Shown here piece by piece: positions 54,264 to 61,417 of a stretch of DNA of 64,000 bases. The position numbers and the translations under genes are program-made. The notes under the pieces are model-generated. The model was not told the origin of the DNA and ran no database searches. It was given only the letters and a program-made list of their open reading frames with translations. The stretch is from Candidatus Colwellbacteria bacterium CG10_big_fil_rev_8_21_14_0_10_42_22. Lineage in GTDB: Bacteria; Patescibacteriota; Minisyncoccia; UBA6257; Colwellbacteraceae. Every line of letters starts with the position of its first letter. Position 1 is the first letter of the stretch. The stretch covers positions 2,654 to 66,653 of the forward strand of contig PFAH01000008.1 of assembly GCA_002773725.1 (NCBI GenBank), given 5' to 3'.

Positions 54264-54605
54264 CTAGTTTTCGTCCTCATCTTCAGCTTCAGAGAACCAC
54301 TTCTCGTTTTCGGGGGGCGCAATTCGCACCTCGACGACGTAGGAGCCCCCACAATCGTCGAGTTCCTGTCCACAGAACGGACAGATGTACTCGAGCAATC
54401 CATTGACCCGAAGATCCCCTCCTGGTGCTCTGCCCCCCGCATTGCATTCCCATTCCGTAGAAGAGTCAGCAATGGATGCACCGATTGCCTTGAAGTGTTC
54501 CTCGACAATCTCAATACAGGCACAGACATCCGGATCGATGAGGTCTGCCGAGCATTCGAATTTTTCGAAAGCCCTGCCAACGAAGTCCAAGTCGATGGGT
54601 TTCAT
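54264..54605 (-). CDS. hypothetical acidic protein with Cys pairs (zinc-ribbon-like), GC-rich island gene 5
   Basis: 113 aa; CSADLIDPDVCAC...EWECNAGG...ICPFCGQELDDCGG and the tail EAEDEDEN. AGAAGGGA lies upstream of the ATG. Last gene before the terminator. Confidence 0.5.
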   Translation of the reverse strand: MKPIDLDFVGRAFEKFECSADLIDPDVCACIEIVEEHFKAIGASIADSSTEWECNAGGRAPGGDLRVNGLLEYICPFCGQELDDCGGSYVVEVRIAPPENEKWFSEAEDEDEN

Positions 54606-54620
54606 ACTTCTTGTTCCCTT

Positions 54621-54989
54621 CTACGCAATCCAAAGACCGTGCAGACCGGATAGTTCACGCCTGAACACTCCGCCCCTCTTCTCCACATGCTCGCGAAACA
54701 TACGAAAAACGTTGTCCACGTTCTCCGCGTCGTACCACCCATCGTATAGACCATCATCATCGAGGGCGATGTAAATGAGTCCTTTTGGTTGGAGAGAAGC
54801 ATCGTGCTGGGAAATGACCTCCTCACGTTCTTCGTCCCAGAGAAGAATGTGACCCATGTTGGGCAGAAACCCCACTCTTTTCCCGAGGATTCTTGGATGG
54901 GATTTCTCCAAGTTGGCCAATGCCGTTCCGCCGGGGTGGTGTCCCTCTGTCCATCCATACCTCGCCCTATAGAGCCAAAGCGTTTCCAT
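54621..54989 (-). CDS. hypothetical protein, GC-rich island gene 4
   Basis: 122 aa; AAGGGG 5 nt before the ATG, and 11 nt after the stop of gene 3. The alternative frame 54602..54994 looks compositionally like noise. Confidence 0.45.
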   Translation of the reverse strand: METLWLYRARYGWTEGHHPGGTALANLEKSHPRILGKRVGFLPNMGHILLWDEEREEVISQHDASLQPKGLIYIALDDDGLYDGWYDAENVDNVFRMFREHVEKRGGVFRRELSGLHGLWIA

Positions 54990-55000
54990 ATCAACCCCTT

Positions 55001-55339
55001 CTAGGTACCGATGGTGTGAATACCGCGTTGCCCCGGATACTCTGGGGCCTCGACGATGGTTCGTGTCCTCACATACGCGTCGTAGTTGTCTTCATAAACC
55101 CAACCCAGGATTATTCCATTCAGGTTGTTGTCTTCGAAGAAAACTCGAATCTTATGACCAACATGTGGCCATGCTCCGGTGTGGTAGTTGAAGTGCTCAC
55201 CCTCCATCCATGAAAGAAGCCCTCCATTGGAAAGATCGAATTGGTGAATCTGGTAAGATTCGTTCAAACGAACTTCTCCCACCATATTCGTGACATCGAC
55301 CTCGATAACCACACCAGCATGCCAATCGCGATATGTCAT
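55001..55339 (-). CDS. hypothetical protein, GC-rich island gene 3
   Basis: 112 aa from the ATG at 55339 (MTYRDWHAGVVIEV...). The ATG overlaps the stop of gene 2 in an ATGA motif, indicating translational coupling. Confidence 0.45.
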   Translation of the reverse strand: MTYRDWHAGVVIEVDVTNMVGEVRLNESYQIHQFDLSNGGLLSWMEGEHFNYHTGAWPHVGHKIRVFFEDNNLNGIILGWVYEDNYDAYVRTRTIVEAPEYPGQRGIHTIGT

Positions 55340-55500
55340 GATCTGTGTCCTCCGGTTGTTATGAAGCGACGAAATCTCGGATTGTGGCGGTTGTCCCTGC
55401 ACTCAAGTCGAGCGGGCGCAACTCGCATCTTCTTGTCTTCACGATGCAGAAGTTTGGGAGAGCCCAACGCTTGTGCAACATGTCTCCAGAAATCGTTCAT
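55336..55500 (-). CDS. hypothetical small basic protein, GC-rich island gene 2
   Basis: 54 aa from the ATG at 55500, with GAGGAAG 7 nt upstream. The ORF track extends to a GTG at 55548, which has no ribosome-binding site. Arg/His-rich. Confidence 0.4.
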   Translation of the reverse strand: MNDFWRHVAQALGSPKLLHREDKKMRVAPARLECRDNRHNPRFRRFITTGGHRS

Positions 55501-55609
55501 AGTTCTCTTCCTCAGTTGTGAAAGAGCGAAGCCCTTTCTTTTCCCCACGGGGCTTATAGGTCTTGAATATGCAATATTTATAAGAGTCAGTCAACTTCGT
55601 TAGAGTTAA

Positions 55610-55625
55610 GCTATCTCAAGATAGC
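55610..55625. promoter_or_regulatory. near-perfect palindrome GCTATCT-CA-AGATAGC in the intergenic region upstream of the gene 2-5 operon
   Basis: Read directly. A TTGACT box (minus strand, plus coordinates 55589-55594) lies next to it. Candidate operator. Confidence 0.4.
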
Positions 55626-55746
55626 CATCGGATGCCAAAGGGCACTTTATCTCTAACGGGGTCAATTTTAATACACCCAAAAATGCATGAACCCCACCTT
55701 TGTGAAATCGGGCGGGATTCACGCAGATGGGGTTGTTGGGCTCGCT

Positions 55747-55983
55747 TTAGACGCGCCCTCGGATTCTGGGAAAAGAGAAGCATCGGTCGTGCTGATGGCA
55801 CCTCTCGGCGCTGTTGTAGATAGAAAGGCGAATTTCGCAGCCCTTCTCCGCGCAAATGCGTCCCGTGGGATACACCTTGTGTTTGCGGTTGCTTCCGCCG
55901 ATTCTTCTCGCAATTGTCGGATTGCGACGCGTAGTCGCTCCTCCAAAATTGCCTCCCACTCCCTCGTTCTCAAAGAGCGGCAT
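55747..55983 (-). CDS. hypothetical zinc-finger-like small protein, GC-rich island gene 1
   Basis: 78 aa; GGGAGG with a 6-nt spacer before the ATG. Cys/His pattern CAEKGC-x12-CHQHDRC. It is the first gene downstream of the divergent promoter region. Confidence 0.5.
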   Translation of the reverse strand: MPLFENEGVGGNFGGATTRRNPTIARRIGGSNRKHKVYPTGRICAEKGCEIRLSIYNSAERCHQHDRCFSFPRIRGRV

Positions 55984-56009
55984 CTTTTTCCTCCCTATCC
56001 CGATGCCTT

Positions 56010-56126
56010 AGACCCCTAAAATACAATTTTTAATTATTAAAAGTCAATATTCGTATTTGACTAGCGAAATAAATTGTGGCAATTTCTATATGTACATTGA
56101 AGTCTAAGTTGAAGGGAGCGTTCATC
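56010..56126. promoter_or_regulatory. divergent control region between the minus-strand and plus-strand small-gene operons
   Basis: AT-rich, with AGTCAA (56042-56047) and TTGACT (56057-56062) forming an inverted pair of -35-like boxes 9 nt apart (AGTCAA-ATATTCGTATT-TGACT). Genes with good ribosome-binding sites start on both sides. Confidence 0.45.
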
Positions 56127-56405
56127 GTGCAAGACATTCCCGAAAACGTGGAACTCGGAAGTCAGCTCTATTGGGAGTATCGACTTCGCAACGAACTGAA
56201 CTCCAGATGGAATCGTGTTGCCAATCATCTCGTGGCTTTGAAGAAGCGGATGTATGAACAGAGATGTGATGACGGATGCATTCTCGGGATTTGGCACTGG
56301 CTTGTGAATCAGTGGGGAGAGTCCCTTCTGAGAAGGCGTAATGCCTGCGAGGAACGCATTCGCATTTTGGAGCACCAGATTTGGATTAAAGGAGAACGAG
56401 AATGA
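56127..56405 (+). CDS. hypothetical protein, GC-rich island plus-strand gene 1
   Basis: 93 aa from the GTG at 56127, with AAGGGAG 8 nt upstream. The ORF track ATG at 56076 lacks a ribosome-binding site. The stop overlaps the next ATG (ATGA). Confidence 0.4.
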   Translation: MQDIPENVELGSQLYWEYRLRNELNSRWNRVANHLVALKKRMYEQRCDDGCILGIWHWLVNQWGESLLRRRNACEERIRILEHQIWIKGERE

Positions 56406-57990: not shown

Positions 57991-58037
57991 AAACGAAGAA
58001 GACCACCGCGGGGCGAGGGAAGACGATGGTCTTCTTC
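57990..58037 (-). terminator. intrinsic terminator (11-bp stem GAAGAAGACCA/TGGTCTTCTTC; U-run on the minus strand)
   Basis: Read directly. On the minus-strand RNA the stem is followed by GUUUUUA. It sits between convergent tspO and the 58583-to-58065 gene. Confidence 0.6.
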
Positions 58038-58064: not shown

Positions 58065-58583
58065 CTAGCAGACGGGTATGGGGGCAATCAATCGCCCACG
58101 CGACCGCCTGCAGTCGGCGATGTCCCAGACCTCCACGAGATCCAGATCGCCGTTCCCTCCGTCGCCGTGCTCGAACGAGCGGTGTTCCAGCTCCGGAACC
58201 TCTTCGATTGCTCTTGAGCAACAGACGCTCGCGAACACGGAAGGCATCATGAGATCAGCGATCTCATGATCGCGGAGGCGGAGGAGCAGATCCTCCAAGT
58301 CCGAGACCGCTTCGTCCCAGGCGGTCTCTTCGCACCAGACCGGCGCGAATCCAAATCGGCGATCGTACCGGTGCGGACGGTACTCATAGAGCACCGTCAC
58401 GCCATCAGGCGGGATGCAGGGCATGGTGCCCTTTTCCACCCACGGCTCGCACTCGCGGAAAATCACTTCCCCCCCGTTACGCAGGGGAGCGATGACTTTC
58501 CGACCTCGCTGGGTCGGTTCGATGATGGCAAACCACTCACCATCATCACCTTGAAATGCTTCAAAGATCGTTCCCCCAAACAT
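58065..58583 (-). CDS. hypothetical protein (172 aa), GC-rich
   Basis: ATG at 58583 with AAGGAGGG 4 nt upstream. A TTGACA-17-TACAAA promoter lies on the minus strand (plus coordinates 58622-58650). The terminator is downstream. No family recognised. Confidence 0.5.
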   Translation of the reverse strand: MFGGTIFEAFQGDDGEWFAIIEPTQRGRKVIAPLRNGGEVIFRECEPWVEKGTMPCIPPDGVTVLYEYRPHRYDRRFGFAPVWCEETAWDEAVSDLEDLLLRLRDHEIADLMMPSVFASVCCSRAIEEVPELEHRSFEHGDGGNGDLDLVEVWDIADCRRSRGRLIAPIPVC

Positions 58584-58644
58584 GGTCCCTCCTTCTTGTC
58601 GCTTCAAGGACCGTTGCGGTGTTTGTACCATAAAACAGAATAAA

Positions 58645-58700
58645 TGTCAATAAAGTGGATACTTTCCACTCTTGATTAAATTAATTTTCTATTGTATAAA
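58645..58700. promoter_or_regulatory. back-to-back divergent promoters: minus-strand TTGACA (58645-58650) for the 172-aa gene and plus-strand TTGATT-17-TATAAA (58672-58700) for rnpB
   Basis: Hexamers read directly. A small hairpin GTGGA-TACTT-TCCAC (58655-58669) sits between the two -35 boxes. Confidence 0.5.
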
Positions 58701-58734
58701 CTTTTCCGCCTACTTATTTGTAGAAAAACTTATC

Positions 58735-58803
58735 TGACAGTAGGTACGCCTACCTGACAGTAGGTGCGCCTACCTGACAGTAGGTAGGCCTGCCTGCCGA
58801 TAG
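58735..58803 (+). repeat. three tandem ~20-nt units (TACCTGACAGTAGGT-N-CGCC), each a CCTAC/GTAGG mini-hairpin, in the rnpB leader
   Basis: Read directly: TATCTGACAGTAGGTACGCC TACCTGACAGTAGGTGCGCC TACCTGACAGTAGGTAGGCC, then TGCCTGCCGATAGGCAGGG. Related GC-rich motifs (CCTGCC, TAGGTAGG, and the palindrome CCTACCGGTAGG) recur at 59211-59262, 3-prime of rnpB. Confidence 0.7.
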
Positions 58804-59210
58804 GCAGGGAGGCAATTTAGATAGCAGCTTTGTGGACTCTACACAGTCGAGATAGTGATTGTTCTTTACATCAGGAGTCCGCAAAGAGGAAAGTCCGGAC
58901 ACTCCTCCGACTTAGGTCGGAGAGCAGGGTAGCGGGTAATACCCGTCGTTCGAAAGAATAGAGGTGCGAGCAGTGACGCTCTGTTTAGAAATATGCAGAG
59001 AGGCCCGATCCCAACGTAGATGGTCTAATCCCGCCATAGGGGCAAAAAGCGGGAGTGAAACGGCTAAATCCTTACCTGAGTGCAAGGCCGTGCTCCGACT
59101 TCGGTCGGAGAGAGCCGCACGAGCTTGAGAGTAATCGATGGCCTAGATAGATTGCTATCATCCGACCACGCGTCGGATTACAGAATCCGGCTTATTAATT
59201 GCCTCCCTGC
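58804..59210 (+). ncRNA. rnpB: RNase P RNA (bacterial type A)
   Basis: P1 pairing GCAGGGAGGCAATT (5-prime) with AATTGCCTCCCTGC (3-prime). P4 strands AGGAAAGTCCGGACACTCC and ACAGAATCCGGCTTAT. Conserved AGGGTAGCGGGTAATACCCG, GGGCAAAAAGCGGGAGTGAAACGGC and TGAGTGCAAGGCCGTGCTCCGACTTCGGTCGGAG modules. Confidence 0.85.
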
Positions 59211-59263
59211 TTACCGGCAGACAGACCTGCCTGCTGATAGGTAGGCCTGCCTACCGGTAGGTA

Positions 59264-59309
59264 AAAGAGGTCATCCGAGATTTATCTTAGATGACCTCTT
59301 TTGGTTTTT
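59264..59309 (+). terminator. intrinsic terminator after rnpB (AAGAGGTCATC ... GATGACCTCTT TTGGTTTTT)
   Basis: 11-bp stem with a T-tract, read directly. Confidence 0.7.
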
Positions 59310-59393
59310 GAGTTGAGAACCAATAGAATTATCAATTACAAAACTAGATTGTCCACTATCAACTATTCTCTAAAAACTATAAACTGACAAAGT

Positions 59394-60146
59394 ATGTCAA
59401 AGTATTACACACCTCGAAGAACAAGAAATATCTATGAGCCAAGCTCGGATGAGCCCTTTAAGTTGAGTCGCTCTAAGGTAGATCTTTTCATTGAATGCCC
59501 AAAATGTTTCTATCTTGATCGTCGTCTTGGAGTTGGCAGACCCCCCGGCTATCCGTTTAGTTTAAATTCTGCGGTTGACTCGCTTTTAAAAAAAGAATTT
59601 GATATCCACAGAGCTGATAAAACGGCTCATCCCTTAATGGAGCAATATGGAATAGACGCTGTTCCTTTTGAACACGAAGATATAGATAAATGGAGAGAAA
59701 ACTTTGTTGGTGTTCAGTATTATCATAAACCAACAAACTTTGTCTTAACCGGAGCTATAGATGATGTTTGGGTAAATCCCAAGGGAGAGTTATTAATTGC
59801 TGACTATAAAGCAACTTCTAAAGATGGAGAAGTTGATCTAGATGCAGATTGGCAGATTAGTTACAAACGCCAAATGGAATTCTACCAATGGTTAATGCGT
59901 CAAAATGGATTCGACGTATCTTCGGTTGGGTATTTTGTTTACGCCAATGGCAAGACGGACACAAAGGCGTTTGACGGCAAACTGGAGTTCGATGTTAAGG
60001 TGATTCCCTATGAGGGCGATTCGTCTTGGGTAGAGCCCACTCTCGAGAAGATTAAATCGACTCTAGATGCAAATAATGTTCCGGAGGCAGATGATGATTG
60101 TGATTTTTGCAGATATAGAAAAGCGGTGGTGGAAGTGGGCGAATAG
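59394..60146 (+). CDS. PD-(D/E)xK nuclease with four-Cys cluster (Cas4-like / DUF83-type)
   Basis: 250 aa; N-terminal ECPKCFYLD and C-terminal CDFCRYRK Cys pairs flank the nuclease core GAIDDVWVNPKGELLIADYKA (D...D/E-x-K). Confidence 0.65.
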   Translation: MSKYYTPRRTRNIYEPSSDEPFKLSRSKVDLFIECPKCFYLDRRLGVGRPPGYPFSLNSAVDSLLKKEFDIHRADKTAHPLMEQYGIDAVPFEHEDIDKWRENFVGVQYYHKPTNFVLTGAIDDVWVNPKGELLIADYKATSKDGEVDLDADWQISYKRQMEFYQWLMRQNGFDVSSVGYFVYANGKTDTKAFDGKLEFDVKVIPYEGDSSWVEPTLEKIKSTLDANNVPEADDDCDFCRYRKAVVEVGE

Positions 60147-60880: not shown

Positions 60881-61417
60881 ATGCTAAAGAAATTGCCCAA
60901 CTGGTTGGGCTACGCGAGAATGGTCCTGACCCCTGTGGTTATGGGCTTCATCTACTACGGTGACAACGAATTCTGGACGGGGTTCGTTTTCGCCATCGTT
61001 GTGGCGACAGATGGCCTTGATGGCCCCATCGCCCGAGCAACACATTCGACCAGCCAATTTGGCATCATGTTGGACACGCTGGCAGACAAGTTCTTGATTG
61101 CCGGTTGTGTCCTCGCGTTGGTAGCCAAGGACCCAGTTTGGCTTTGGGCGGGATTCATCATCATCGACCGTGATTTCTTGGTGATGACGCTGAAGGCAAA
61201 CGTAGGCGGGGGCTTCATCAAGGCATCCAACTTGGGAAAGATCAAGATGGGCCTTCAATCGGTGGCTATCTACCTGGTCATCAATCCTTGGCCTTTCAAT
61301 GGTGCCACCGGCTGGAACTCTCCTGGTGGGGCGGTGATGGCGTTGGCTCTTTGGTTCACCCTCTTCTCGGCTTGGGACTACTACCACAAGTACACCCGTT
61401 TCTTGCGGTGGAATTAA
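60881..61417 (+). CDS. pgsA: CDP-alcohol phosphatidyltransferase (phosphatidylglycerophosphate synthase-like)
   Basis: 178 aa; D-G-x2-A-R ... G-x3-D-x3-D signature in ATDGLDGPIARATHSTSQFGIMLDTLADKF. GC is clearly higher than the neighbouring genes. Confidence 0.75.
   Translation: MLKKLPNWLGYARMVLTPVVMGFIYYGDNEFWTGFVFAIVVATDGLDGPIARATHSTSQFGIMLDTLADKFLIAGCVLALVAKDPVWLWAGFIIIDRDFLVMTLKANVGGGFIKASNLGKIKMGLQSVAIYLVINPWPFNGATGWNSPGGAVMALALWFTLFSAWDYYHKYTRFLRWN

Follow-up and report, generated by a model that had tools for sequence, protein, structure and literature searches.

Tandem 20-nt palindromic repeats at both P1 junctions of a predicted RNase P RNA gene in Candidatus Colwellbacteria

The locus described here raises the question of how an RNase P RNA gene (rnpB) of a CPR bacterium came to carry arrays of one family of 20-nt palindromes on both of its flanks, and whether these arrays are more than an oddity of a single lineage. 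An rnpB gene with P1 and P4 pairings and approximate ends at 58804-59210 had been proposed in an earlier note on this DNA, a stretch of 64 kb which was analysed as a whole (the window). The identification is borne out: Rfam model RF00010 (RNaseP_bact_a) matches positions 58843-59206 with an E-value of 4e-19 and a score of 64.4 bits, and covariation of both P1 and P4, as looked for in a type A RNase P RNA, was found among relatives. Since this score lies below the gathering threshold of the model (100 bits), the gene is not reported at that threshold; the rnpB genes of relatives score 46-58 bits. The covariance scan had been recommended for fixing the ends of the gene. The model alignment is wrong at the 5' end, and the ends were therefore set by comparison with relatives, which gave the following core:

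58808-59206, plus strand: predicted core of the RNase P RNA (type A, diverged as in CPR), 399 nt with GGAGG and CCTCC at its ends

By homology with relatives, the two strands of the ancestral P1 are GGAGGCAATT (58808-58817) and AATTGCCTCC (59197-59206), and the ends differ by no more than 4 nt from those first proposed. P1 comprises 8-15 contiguous base pairs in 24 non-redundant relatives, whose sequences differ yet stay complementary. Both strands of P4, GAGGAAAGUCCGG and ACAGAAUCCGGCUUA, are present (58886-58900 and 59181-59195), and at one variable P4 pair 23 relatives have C-G and eight have G-C, with the pair broken in one. The core is about 77% identical to those of two relatives (L131 and L145) and closer to that of a third, L172, in the shared blocks. 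It is the single rnpB candidate in the window and is located at the conserved site upstream of a PD-(D/E)XK gene. Judged by its sequence, the locus is the RNase P RNA gene of a Candidatus Colwellbacteria bacterium (CPR).

The predicted transcription unit is delimited by two conserved signals, both of which the earlier note had recognized:

58672-58700, plus strand: predicted rnpB promoter, assigned by homology with relatives, TTGATT (58672-58677), 17-nt spacer, TATAAA (58695-58700)
59263-59309, plus strand: predicted intrinsic terminator of rnpB, in which a T-run follows a 13-bp stem (AAAAGAGGTCATC/GATGACCTCTTTT); folding energy -23.2 kcal/mol, z -5.6

Located some 100 nt ahead of P1, the promoter is homologous in position and sequence to the promoters of L172/L173, L131 and L145, which stop 7 nt short of GGAGG; in the window the 7 nt after TATAAA (CTTTTCC) reach the ancestral junction with P1. 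The terminator is nearly identical to that of L172. No sigma-70-like promoter that could restore a short 5' end was found inside the leader. From homology we infer the start of rnpB transcription, the processing of the transcript and the use of the conserved promoter. Both arrays should lie inside a predicted primary transcript of about 600 nt, because one is situated between the conserved promoter and P1 and the other between P1 and the conserved terminator:

58708-58807, plus strand: 5' insertion, exactly 100 nt long, with five quasi-palindromic 20-nt units in phase, of the CCTAC-N6-GTAGG type
59207-59262, plus strand: 3' insertion, 56 nt long, with 2.8 units that belong to the same 20-nt family (CCTGC...GGCAG, CCTGC...GTAGG and CCTACCGGTAGG)

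The limits of the 5' insertion were set from L172, L131 and L145, and those of the 3' insertion from L172, L180 and L181, in which CCTCC runs straight into the AAAAG... of the terminator. Three tandem 20-nt hairpin units had been described for the leader. Their tandem arrangement stands, as TRF detected a period of 20 with 3.2 copies, 90% matches and a score of 105 at 58734-58796, the top-scoring tandem repeat in the 64-kb window; their number has to be raised, since at lower identity the 20-nt phase starts at 58707 and yields five units. The two central 5' units both contain an identical 19-nt stretch, CGCCTACCTGACAGTAGGT. The related motifs which had been noticed between the mature 3' end and the terminator form a second array with the same period of 20 (TRF: 1.9 copies, 59226-59263), in which three phased units start from 59206 and CCTACCGGTAGG occupies 59250-59261. 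The unit consensus is CCTRC-N6-GYAGG, with five copies in the leader and 2.8 in the trailer, and the 176 nt of flanking sequence contain 17 occurrences of the pentamers CCTRC and GYAGG, compared with about 0.35 expected. Local hairpin folds of the arrays amount to -36.8 and -27.3 kcal/mol.

The proposed search for the unit elsewhere was run on the 64-kb window and revealed none beyond the two rnpB flanks, not even when a loose hairpin pattern was allowed. The 252 kb of DNA from relatives contained no further copy, apart from one similar palindrome. This intergenic 20-nt perfect palindrome, CCTGCCTACCGGTAGGCAGG (L130:6237), is unrelated to rnpB and shares 16 exact bases with positions 59246-59261 of the window, with an estimated chance probability of about 0.02. 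Derivations of the unit from rnpB itself were considered and rejected. The unit is unlike the ancestral P1, GGAGGYAATT, and is hence no duplicated P1 fragment, which the earlier note had named as a possible refutation; the sole resemblance to P1/P2, that of GATAGGCAG (58799-58807) to GATAGCAG (58821-58828), is too short to interpret. Nor is the unit a copy of the 3' end of rnpB in the manner of E. coli.

For the comparison with relatives, about 45 related rnpB loci were assembled. The closest relative is L172/L173, with a PD-(D/E)XK protein 83% identical to that of the window; in L172 a promoter and a terminator nearly identical to those of the window abut an 11-bp P1, and the units are missing. 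They are absent also from L131, L145, L174-L177, L180 and L181. The array insertions thus occur in the window only, exactly at the two P1 junctions and inside the transcription unit. An intermediate state of the arrays was not found among the recovered contigs: all those with arrays are identical and represent one lineage, and exact-protein look-ups gave only contigs 100% identical to the window. The alignment with relatives' rnpB loci, which had been called for, therefore shows that the repeats are not an ordinary co-varying P1 extension, as no relative has them. The rnpB genes of relatives contain other large lineage-specific insertions in peripheral helices, and in one of them, L156, a similar hairpin (CCTGTCTGCCGACAGGCAGG) occurs elsewhere in rnpB, at P19.

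The two flanks had been viewed as separate sets of mini-hairpins. This description falls short, as the leader and trailer arrays are complementary to each other along 67 nt, where 60 pairs (G-U included) are possible, and the MFE fold of the full transcript lengthens P1 by about 55 bp:

58751-58817, plus strand: 5' arm of a potential extended P1 helix, inverted repeat with 79% Watson-Crick pairs, gapless helix score 46, present in the MFE fold
59197-59263, plus strand: 3' arm of the potential extended P1 helix, pairing with 58751-58817

By pairing of the two arrays, P1 could grow from about 11-14 bp to about 67-70 bp, including adjacent segments of 9 bp and 11 bp with one mismatch between them. 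The full-transcript fold amounts to -266.8 kcal/mol as against -244.4 kcal/mol for the summed parts, a gain of about 22 kcal/mol for the extended fold, and the P1 extension alone to -71.8 kcal/mol. RNAduplex on long flanks did not discriminate, because everything pairs through bulges, and was replaced by a gapless helix score. This score is 46 in the window and at most 17.5 in 33 clade relatives. A background set of at least 120 rnpB loci from many phyla was obtained from a genome scan with the pattern GAGGAAAGTCCGGAC...ACAGAAYCCGGCTTA; among the 112 diverse bacterial loci listed, the score has a mean of 13.4, a standard deviation of 2.5 and a maximum of 25.5.

Pairing was then compared between registers and reached 84% at the P1 register, 83% at +20 nt and 80% at -20 nt. 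The near-equal values in the 20-nt-shifted registers mean that the complementarity stems from the tandem palindromes, and pair-by-pair selection is not needed for it; the register test shows no specific selection for long-range pairing. The local array hairpins would form first during transcription and might persist. The suggestion that the repeats are protein-binding or processing-like motifs finds no backing here, as the rest of the 64 kb is free of the motif and the arrays are complementary independently of the register.

The genes around rnpB differ on the two sides:

59394-60146, plus strand: PD-(D/E)XK (Cas4-like) nuclease gene (Pfam PF12705), conserved downstream neighbour and synteny anchor
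58065-58583, minus strand: 172-aa gene, GC-rich, function unknown, very rare family, a neighbour of rnpB and not part of it
58622-58650, minus strand: putative promoter of the 172-aa gene, TTGACA (58650-58645), 17-nt spacer, TACAAA (58627-58622)
57995-58037, minus strand: putative terminator hairpin of the 172-aa gene, GAAGAAGACCA...TGGTCTTCTTC, with a T-run after it on the minus strand

The PD-(D/E)XK gene adjoins rnpB in every relative examined. Directly upstream of rnpB, eleven relative loci with ten different sequences (L172/L173, L174-L177, L145, L156, L126, L158 and L007) carry an RNase H-like gene, and those with longer upstream sequence (L172, L175, L176) share the order PGK, RNase T, RNase H. 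In the window, genes for NUDIX and TspO and the orphan GC-rich gene are found instead of the RNase H-like gene. Upstream synteny breaks exactly at the -35 box of rnpB, whereas downstream synteny is intact.

A divergent GC-rich 172-aa gene with a back-to-back promoter about 20 nt away had been reported for this site, and indeed the two divergent -35 boxes are 21 nt apart. An inverted repeat, AGTGGA-N5-TCCACT (58654-58670), is situated between them. The gene has a GC content of 0.60 compared with 0.42 for the window (GC1/2/3 = 0.66/0.45/0.70) and a Shine-Dalgarno sequence, AAGGAGG, 5 nt upstream of its ATG. Its product matched only itself in 5.8e9 clusters, had two remote homologues in 1.84e9 representatives and gave no match to Pfam or PHROGs; its AF2 model, with a pLDDT of 38.6, is meaningless as a fold. 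A match to a giant Ig-repeat protein (P0004) was rejected as uninformative. One homologue, P0002, is encoded at a locus (L163) without rnpB or repeats, where it has a promoter (TTGACT-17-TATAAT, TGG before the -10 box) resembling that of the 172-aa gene and the same style of terminator after the gene. On this sequence evidence the 172-aa gene is an unrelated rare cassette. A native-looking CDP-OH transferase gene of the window is GC-rich as well (GC3 0.72), so that GC content alone is no mark of foreign DNA. Small GC-richer ORFs without a confident Pfam family form a cluster at 54.2-56.4 kb.

With a probability of roughly 60%, we regard the locus as a native, single-copy Colwellbacteria rnpB in which P1 was expanded by local tandem palindromes in this lineage only, as one more idiosyncratic helix expansion of the clade. 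Rather than by invasion of a dispersed mobile element, the arrays would have arisen by local tandem amplification of a palindromic seed, with slippage during replication or template switching across the inverted repeat of P1 as possible mechanisms. The P1 extension would then be an expansion segment like the other idiosyncratic rnpB helix expansions of the clade, tolerated because P1 presumably projects away from the catalytic core. The long imperfect duplex could either be retained as a rod or be trimmed to a P1 of normal length, with a double-strand-specific endonuclease (RNase III) and exonucleases as candidate trimming agents, as with rRNA leader-trailer stems; trimming appears somewhat more likely than a retained rod. 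The six-frame translation of the 64-kb window, which is only part of the genome, contained no RNase III signature. It would be an unusual coincidence for pure slippage if the same unit family had expanded independently on both sides of a 399-nt gene. The arrays are a peculiarity of one lineage for which the group already offers parallels, and probably not a new system.

Two readings that give the units a more active role have to be weighed against local amplification, and both seem improbable to us. In one of them the arrays would be non-neutral and form a programmed leader-trailer duplex: the RNA would first be a precursor about 600 nt long and be matured or stabilised via a double-stranded stem of about 70 bp, similar to rRNA, and this stem would go back to a hitherto undescribed 20-nt palindrome of CPR bacteria which amplifies itself, with the L130 palindrome and the P19 hairpin of L156 as further members. 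A duplex longer than the roughly 20 bp expected of an RNase III-type stem is indeed possible within one transcript (67 nt, 60 pairs), with promoter and terminator outside the arms, but it is absent from all relatives and its pairing does not depend on the register. The other reading takes the units for mobile palindromes like REP/BIME or REPIN elements, moved by a RAYT/IS200-type transposase acting on hairpin DNA, which inserted independently on both sides of rnpB and were amplified afterwards. The units are hairpin-forming imperfect palindromes in tandem clusters in non-coding DNA, as BIMEs are, and the L130 palindrome at a locus unrelated to rnpB as well as the L156 hairpin at another rnpB position would fit a mobile unit. 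A typical REP family is expected to have several copies in 64 kb, however, and neither the window nor the 252 kb of clade DNA provided the dispersed copies; a Pfam scan of the neighbours detected no transposase next to the locus, and two 16-mers with six and two single-copy matches in viral contigs were judged not to exceed chance.

The arrays could also act at the DNA level, as phased operator, iteron or centromere-like sites for a dimeric protein which bracket rnpB and perhaps regulate it together with the divergent gene. The 20-bp period of about two helical turns, the dyad symmetry of each unit, in which CCTRC and GYAGG take turns at intervals of about 10 bp, and the inverted repeat between the -35 boxes are compatible with this. 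We nevertheless consider it decidedly unlikely: no candidate binding protein is encoded beside the locus, the sole novel neighbour, the 172-aa gene, occurs in L163 without rnpB or repeats, the repeats are downstream of the promoter and past the gene and not over the promoter, relatives do without them, and the motif is absent elsewhere in the window. The chances are slimmer still that a mobile element integrated at rnpB with the GC-rich gene as cargo and left the repeats as its scars or att-like sites, an idea already implied when rnpB was pointed out as an integration target. It draws on the loss of upstream synteny, with NUDIX, TspO and the GC-rich orphan in place of the RNase H-like gene and a break right at the -35 box, and on the GC-richer ORF cluster at 54.2-56.4 kb. 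Yet no duplicated fragment of rnpB or its flanks exists in the window, where all matches are 15 nt or shorter with chance-level E-values; the repeats flank rnpB on either side, within its transcription unit and past the point where synteny breaks; the gene order downstream is preserved; the native-looking CDP-OH transferase gene is GC-rich, too; and neither an attL/attR duplicate in the window nor an integrase or transposase among the neighbours scanned was detected. Finally, that the arrays result from a mis-joined or collapsed repeat in the assembly is hardly credible. Short contigs do end in or near rnpB (at 58889, 58952, 59058, 59083 and 59243), but these ends are mostly outside the arrays; L002, L003, L160, L161 and L162 all read identically across the 5' array, as do L001, L002, L003, L004 and L160 across the 3' array, and five assembly or sample records agree (ENA ERZ27293414, ERZ27293400 and ERZ17912254, JGI 3300004209, Logan SRR6240789).

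If the reading as a local P1 expansion is right, the locus is a clean natural example of peripheral-helix growth in an essential ribozyme. The expansion would be recent and datable, with 5 + 2.8 copies of one 20-nt palindrome, and L172 would serve as an almost isogenic unexpanded comparison. Some 55 additional base pairs and a leader of 100 nt would apparently be compatible with bacterial P1, whether they are tolerated as such or removed in maturation. The case adds to the unusual plasticity of CPR rnpB genes, which is the reason why standard covariance models miss them. It may be of practical use for annotating the ends of CPR rnpB genes and as a test case of precursor processing in organisms with reduced RNase sets.

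Several known systems resemble the locus in part. The REP/BIME clusters of enterobacteria and pseudomonads, for which a high-copy dispersed distribution is defining, likewise consist of imperfect palindromes arranged in tandem, close to terminators in non-coding DNA that is transcribed; the units of the window are shorter, with no dispersed copies in the 64 kb and no RAYT transposase seen among the scanned neighbours. rRNA leader-trailer processing stems are RNase III substrates which are conserved and co-vary across species. As with these, leader and trailer of a stable RNA can form a long imperfect duplex continuous with the terminal helix in one transcript, whereas the stem of the window occurs in a single lineage and is explained by the palindromy of the repeats; our literature search for RNase III processing of rnpB precursors yielded no precedent. 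The rnpB gene of E. coli is said to have 113-bp direct repeats in its 3' flank, and we located copies at 1177-1258 and 1290-1371 of the E. coli locus (L179) and a partial third. There, too, repeated sequence directly follows the gene, but the E. coli unit is a duplicate of the 3' end of rnpB with the terminator, on the 3' side only and without pairing to a 5' leader, whereas the unit of the window is unrelated to rnpB, 20 nt long, palindromic and present on both sides. In cyanobacteria, STRR heptanucleotide repeats reportedly occur inside rnpB, within the mature RNA (P12), and are reportedly dispersed genome-wide. They share with the window the short tandem repeats in an RNase P RNA gene of particular lineages and a peripheral helix which tolerates them, and differ from its 20-mers as dispersed heptamers in P12. 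The organism group itself offers a further parallel: for CPR, Lui et al. (2021, PMC8172020) published RNase P RNAs that score below the Rfam threshold and have "large extensions of helices"; in the passages concerned, P15 is extended (S5 Fig) and several helices are missing. The rnpB gene of the window agrees with these passages in its sub-threshold RF00010 score and in lineage-specific extensions of peripheral helices, and it goes beyond them in that P1 and its flanks consist of tandem palindromic repeats between promoter and terminator.

Tandem 20-nt repeats flank the RNase P RNA gene (rnpB) of the window on both sides and are shown to lie between the conserved promoter and the closing helix P1, and between P1 and the conserved terminator. 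The 5' array is the top tandem repeat of the whole 64 kb (TRF). The features, all on the forward strand, are as follows.

58708-58807, +, 5' extra sequence, exactly 100 nt, delimited by the junctions of the closest relative (L172/L173)
58734-58796, +, 5' array, period 20, 3.2 copies, 90% matches, score 105 (TRF)
58808-58817 and 59197-59206, +, strands of the ancestral P1, GGAGGCAATT paired with AATTGCCTCC, from homology with relatives
59207-59262, +, 3' extra sequence, 56 nt, delimited by the same junctions
59226-59263, +, second array, on the 3' side (TRF)

Read in register, the 5' array counts five 20-nt units (starting at 58707) and the 3' array three (starting at 59206), every one of them quasi-palindromic with the form CCTRC-N6-GYAGG, and the 176 nt of flanks contain 17 CCTRC/GYAGG pentamers versus about 0.35 expected. 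Since contigs of several independent assemblies span both arrays identically, an artefact is not the explanation. The earlier note had described tandem units in the leader and related motifs in the trailer; this observation is confirmed, with period 20 on both sides, and the interpretation attached to it is partly supported.

An Rfam scan of the window at the gathering threshold returned three tRNAs only and did not match rnpB; at a permissive threshold, RF00010 was matched at 58843-59206 (E 4e-19, 64.4 bits; cut-off 100 bits) with the 5' end of the gene misaligned. The ends used here were set by homology with relatives, the ancestral P1 strands bounding a core of 399 nt. P1 comprises 8-15 bp in 24 non-redundant clade members, with sequences that are diverse yet complementary, and in the relatives a P4 pair is found as C-G 23 times, as G-C eight times and broken once. 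The identity of rnpB, the single RNase P RNA gene in the window, is secure because of this P1 complementarity, the P4 covariation and a conserved location, 5' of a PD-(D/E)XK nuclease gene. Sub-threshold scores and helix extensions of CPR RNase P RNAs are already published (PMC8172020).

Several further observations concern the RNA itself. Among all recovered contigs a single difference was seen, G58812 to A in the contig L162 (coverage about 2.6x); it lies in the 5' strand of P1, where the G-C pair with C59202, a position outside L162, would become A-C, and either a strain SNP or a sequencing error may be behind it. A CTCCGAC-UUAG/UUCG-GUCGGAG hairpin caps two different rnpB helices (58905-58924, 59093-59112), a related hairpin AUCCGAC...GUCGGAU occupies the P19 position (59161-59179), and the CCGACUUCGGUCGG module recurs in three relatives (L172, L174, L177) at various rnpB positions. 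Insertions of a structured module, about 100-150 nt long, recur inside rnpB of Colwellbacteria-clade relatives.

Insertion module copies: L172:2398-2545 and 2780-2900; L177:2190-2290 and 2537-2660; L129:~2013; L127:~4292; also in L126 and L148

The module starts with CCAATTTTGT-hairpin-ACAAAATTGAG, ends with GCTCAATTT...AAATTGGC and is found at at least three different helices (P5/P7 side, P15/16, 'P19' site) in at least four genomes. An alignment of six copies revealed compensatory changes in 15 of 27 predicted pairs. All 12 genuine matches of a pattern search fell within rnpB, a 13th (L053) being rejected as a low-complexity A/T run. The module corresponds to no Rfam family, and no copy is present in the window. 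It appears to be an expansion module specific to rnpB which moved between helices, and it may be of greater interest than the flank repeats themselves.

For the comparison with relatives suggested in the earlier note, 34 loci were collected by scanning metagenomes with an rnpB pattern specific to the sub-clade, and ten further loci via the syntenic nuclease gene (L172-L178, L180, L181). The units are absent from all of them. In the closest relative, whose nuclease protein is 83% identical, the junctions read CTTGATTATC...TTGTATAAATCTTTTC|GGAGGTAATTTAGATAGCAGCTTTGTGGACTCC on the 5' side and ...TAATTGCCTCC|AAAAGAGGTCATCCGAGAG...GGCCTCTTTTGGTTTTT on the 3' side. Its promoter and terminator are nearly as in the window and directly abut P1; the extra blocks of the window are therefore 58708-58807 and 59207-59262. 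Both fall inside the rnpB transcription unit, and no sigma-70-like promoter was found within the leader.

While the earlier note treated the repeats as separate flank motifs, it overlooked the mutual complementarity of the two arrays. The arms 58751-58817 and 59197-59263 are complementary over 67 nt (79% Watson-Crick; repeat search), and with G-U allowed 60 of the 67 positions pair. The predicted transcript, in its MFE fold, uses array pairing to lengthen P1 by about 55 bp, with -266.8 kcal/mol versus -244.4 for leader, core, trailer and terminator folded separately; local hairpins are also stable (-36.8 and -27.3 kcal/mol). Pairing of the arrays into a helix that continues P1, about 67 bp in length, is shown to be possible. 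When helices between the two rnpB flanks were scored without gaps, the window reached 46 versus at most 17.5 in 33 clade relatives and, among the matches listed, a mean of 13.4 (sd 2.5, maximum 25.5) in 112 diverse bacterial rnpB loci. Moderately extended P1 helices are present elsewhere, since in two unrelated members of this background, a Flavobacteriales MAG (L021) and a Spirochaeta MAG (L087), the flanks are complementary over 34-38 nt. Restricted to pairs between the inserted flanks, the count gave 84% of 55 positions for the P1-contiguous register, and 80, 83 and 75% for registers shifted by -20, +20 and -40 nt. Because shifted registers pair similarly, the complementarity is a by-product of two tandem arrays of one palindrome. 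The long helix is explicable without pair-by-pair selection and could still form, contiguous with P1.

The gene order in relatives is PGK, RNase T, RNase H, rnpB, PD-(D/E)XK, holin. In the window the downstream part is kept, and upstream of rnpB stand NUDIX, TspO and a GC-rich 172-aa gene in the opposite orientation (58065-58583, -), with the synteny break exactly at the rnpB -35 box. The back-to-back promoters described earlier were recovered, their -35 boxes 21 nt apart. An inverted repeat, AGTGGA-TACTT-TCCACT (58654-58670), lies exactly between these boxes and could be an operator or merely a rearrangement junction. The 172-aa gene is preceded by a strong Shine-Dalgarno sequence, has a promoter and a terminator to itself, and shows a codon-position GC pattern typical of coding sequence. 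Among 1.84 billion representatives its protein has just two homologues, both remote, one of them in a locus without rnpB; no match was found in Pfam or PHROG, and the AlphaFold model was unusable. High GC alone is no mark of foreign origin, because a CDP-alcohol phosphatidyltransferase gene (60881-61417; GC 0.54, GC3 0.72) is also rich for this genome. A group of small ORFs (54264-56405; 78-122 aa), flanked by a rhodanese gene and the NUDIX/TspO genes, has a GC of about 0.5 versus 0.42 for the window, and none reached a Pfam gathering score. Together with the lost PGK-RNase T-RNase H block, it suggests a rearranged or acquired segment up to the rnpB -35 box. The idea that the stable-RNA gene served as an integration target found no support, as a search of the window for an att-like duplication yielded none. 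Every Colwellbacteria-clade locus examined has the Cas4-like PD-(D/E)XK nuclease gene (59394-60146, +, in the window) immediately 3' of rnpB; its close homologues in Patescibacteria number about 8000.

As to the origin of the repeats, the unit resembles neither the ancestral P1 (GGAGGYAATT), so that it is not a P1 duplicate, nor the terminator. The only similar sequences elsewhere are a P19-position hairpin in L156 and a perfect 20-nt palindrome, CCTGCCTACCGGTAGGCAGG (L130:6237-6256), which is intergenic, about 7 kb from the rnpB of that relative, and has 16 exact bases in common with 59246-59261. This hint at a wider element family is suggestive but marginal (estimated chance probability about 0.02), and the search for further copies proposed earlier yielded nothing beyond the rnpB flanks within the 64-kb window, even as a loose hairpin. 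A 19-nt stretch, CGCCTACCTGACAGTAGGT, is identical between two central 5' units and suggests their recent duplication. Because of this identity, the dissimilarity to P1 and terminator and the few similar sequences elsewhere, we prefer local amplification, through slippage or template switching at a quasi-palindrome, to a dispersed REP-like element.

The primary rnpB transcript would comprise about 600 nt, and the extension may represent a tolerated expansion of a helix directed away from the catalytic core; trimming of the extension as double-stranded RNA is probable. A tolerated P1 expansion fits the habit of the clade, in which every lineage bears large insertions peculiar to it in the peripheral helices of rnpB. 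Expanded helices and repeats in rnpB are already known, and the present case is limited to one lineage. In E. coli, the sequence confirms that rnpB is followed by 113-bp repeats copied from its own 3' end and terminator; the unit of the window differs in being copied from neither.
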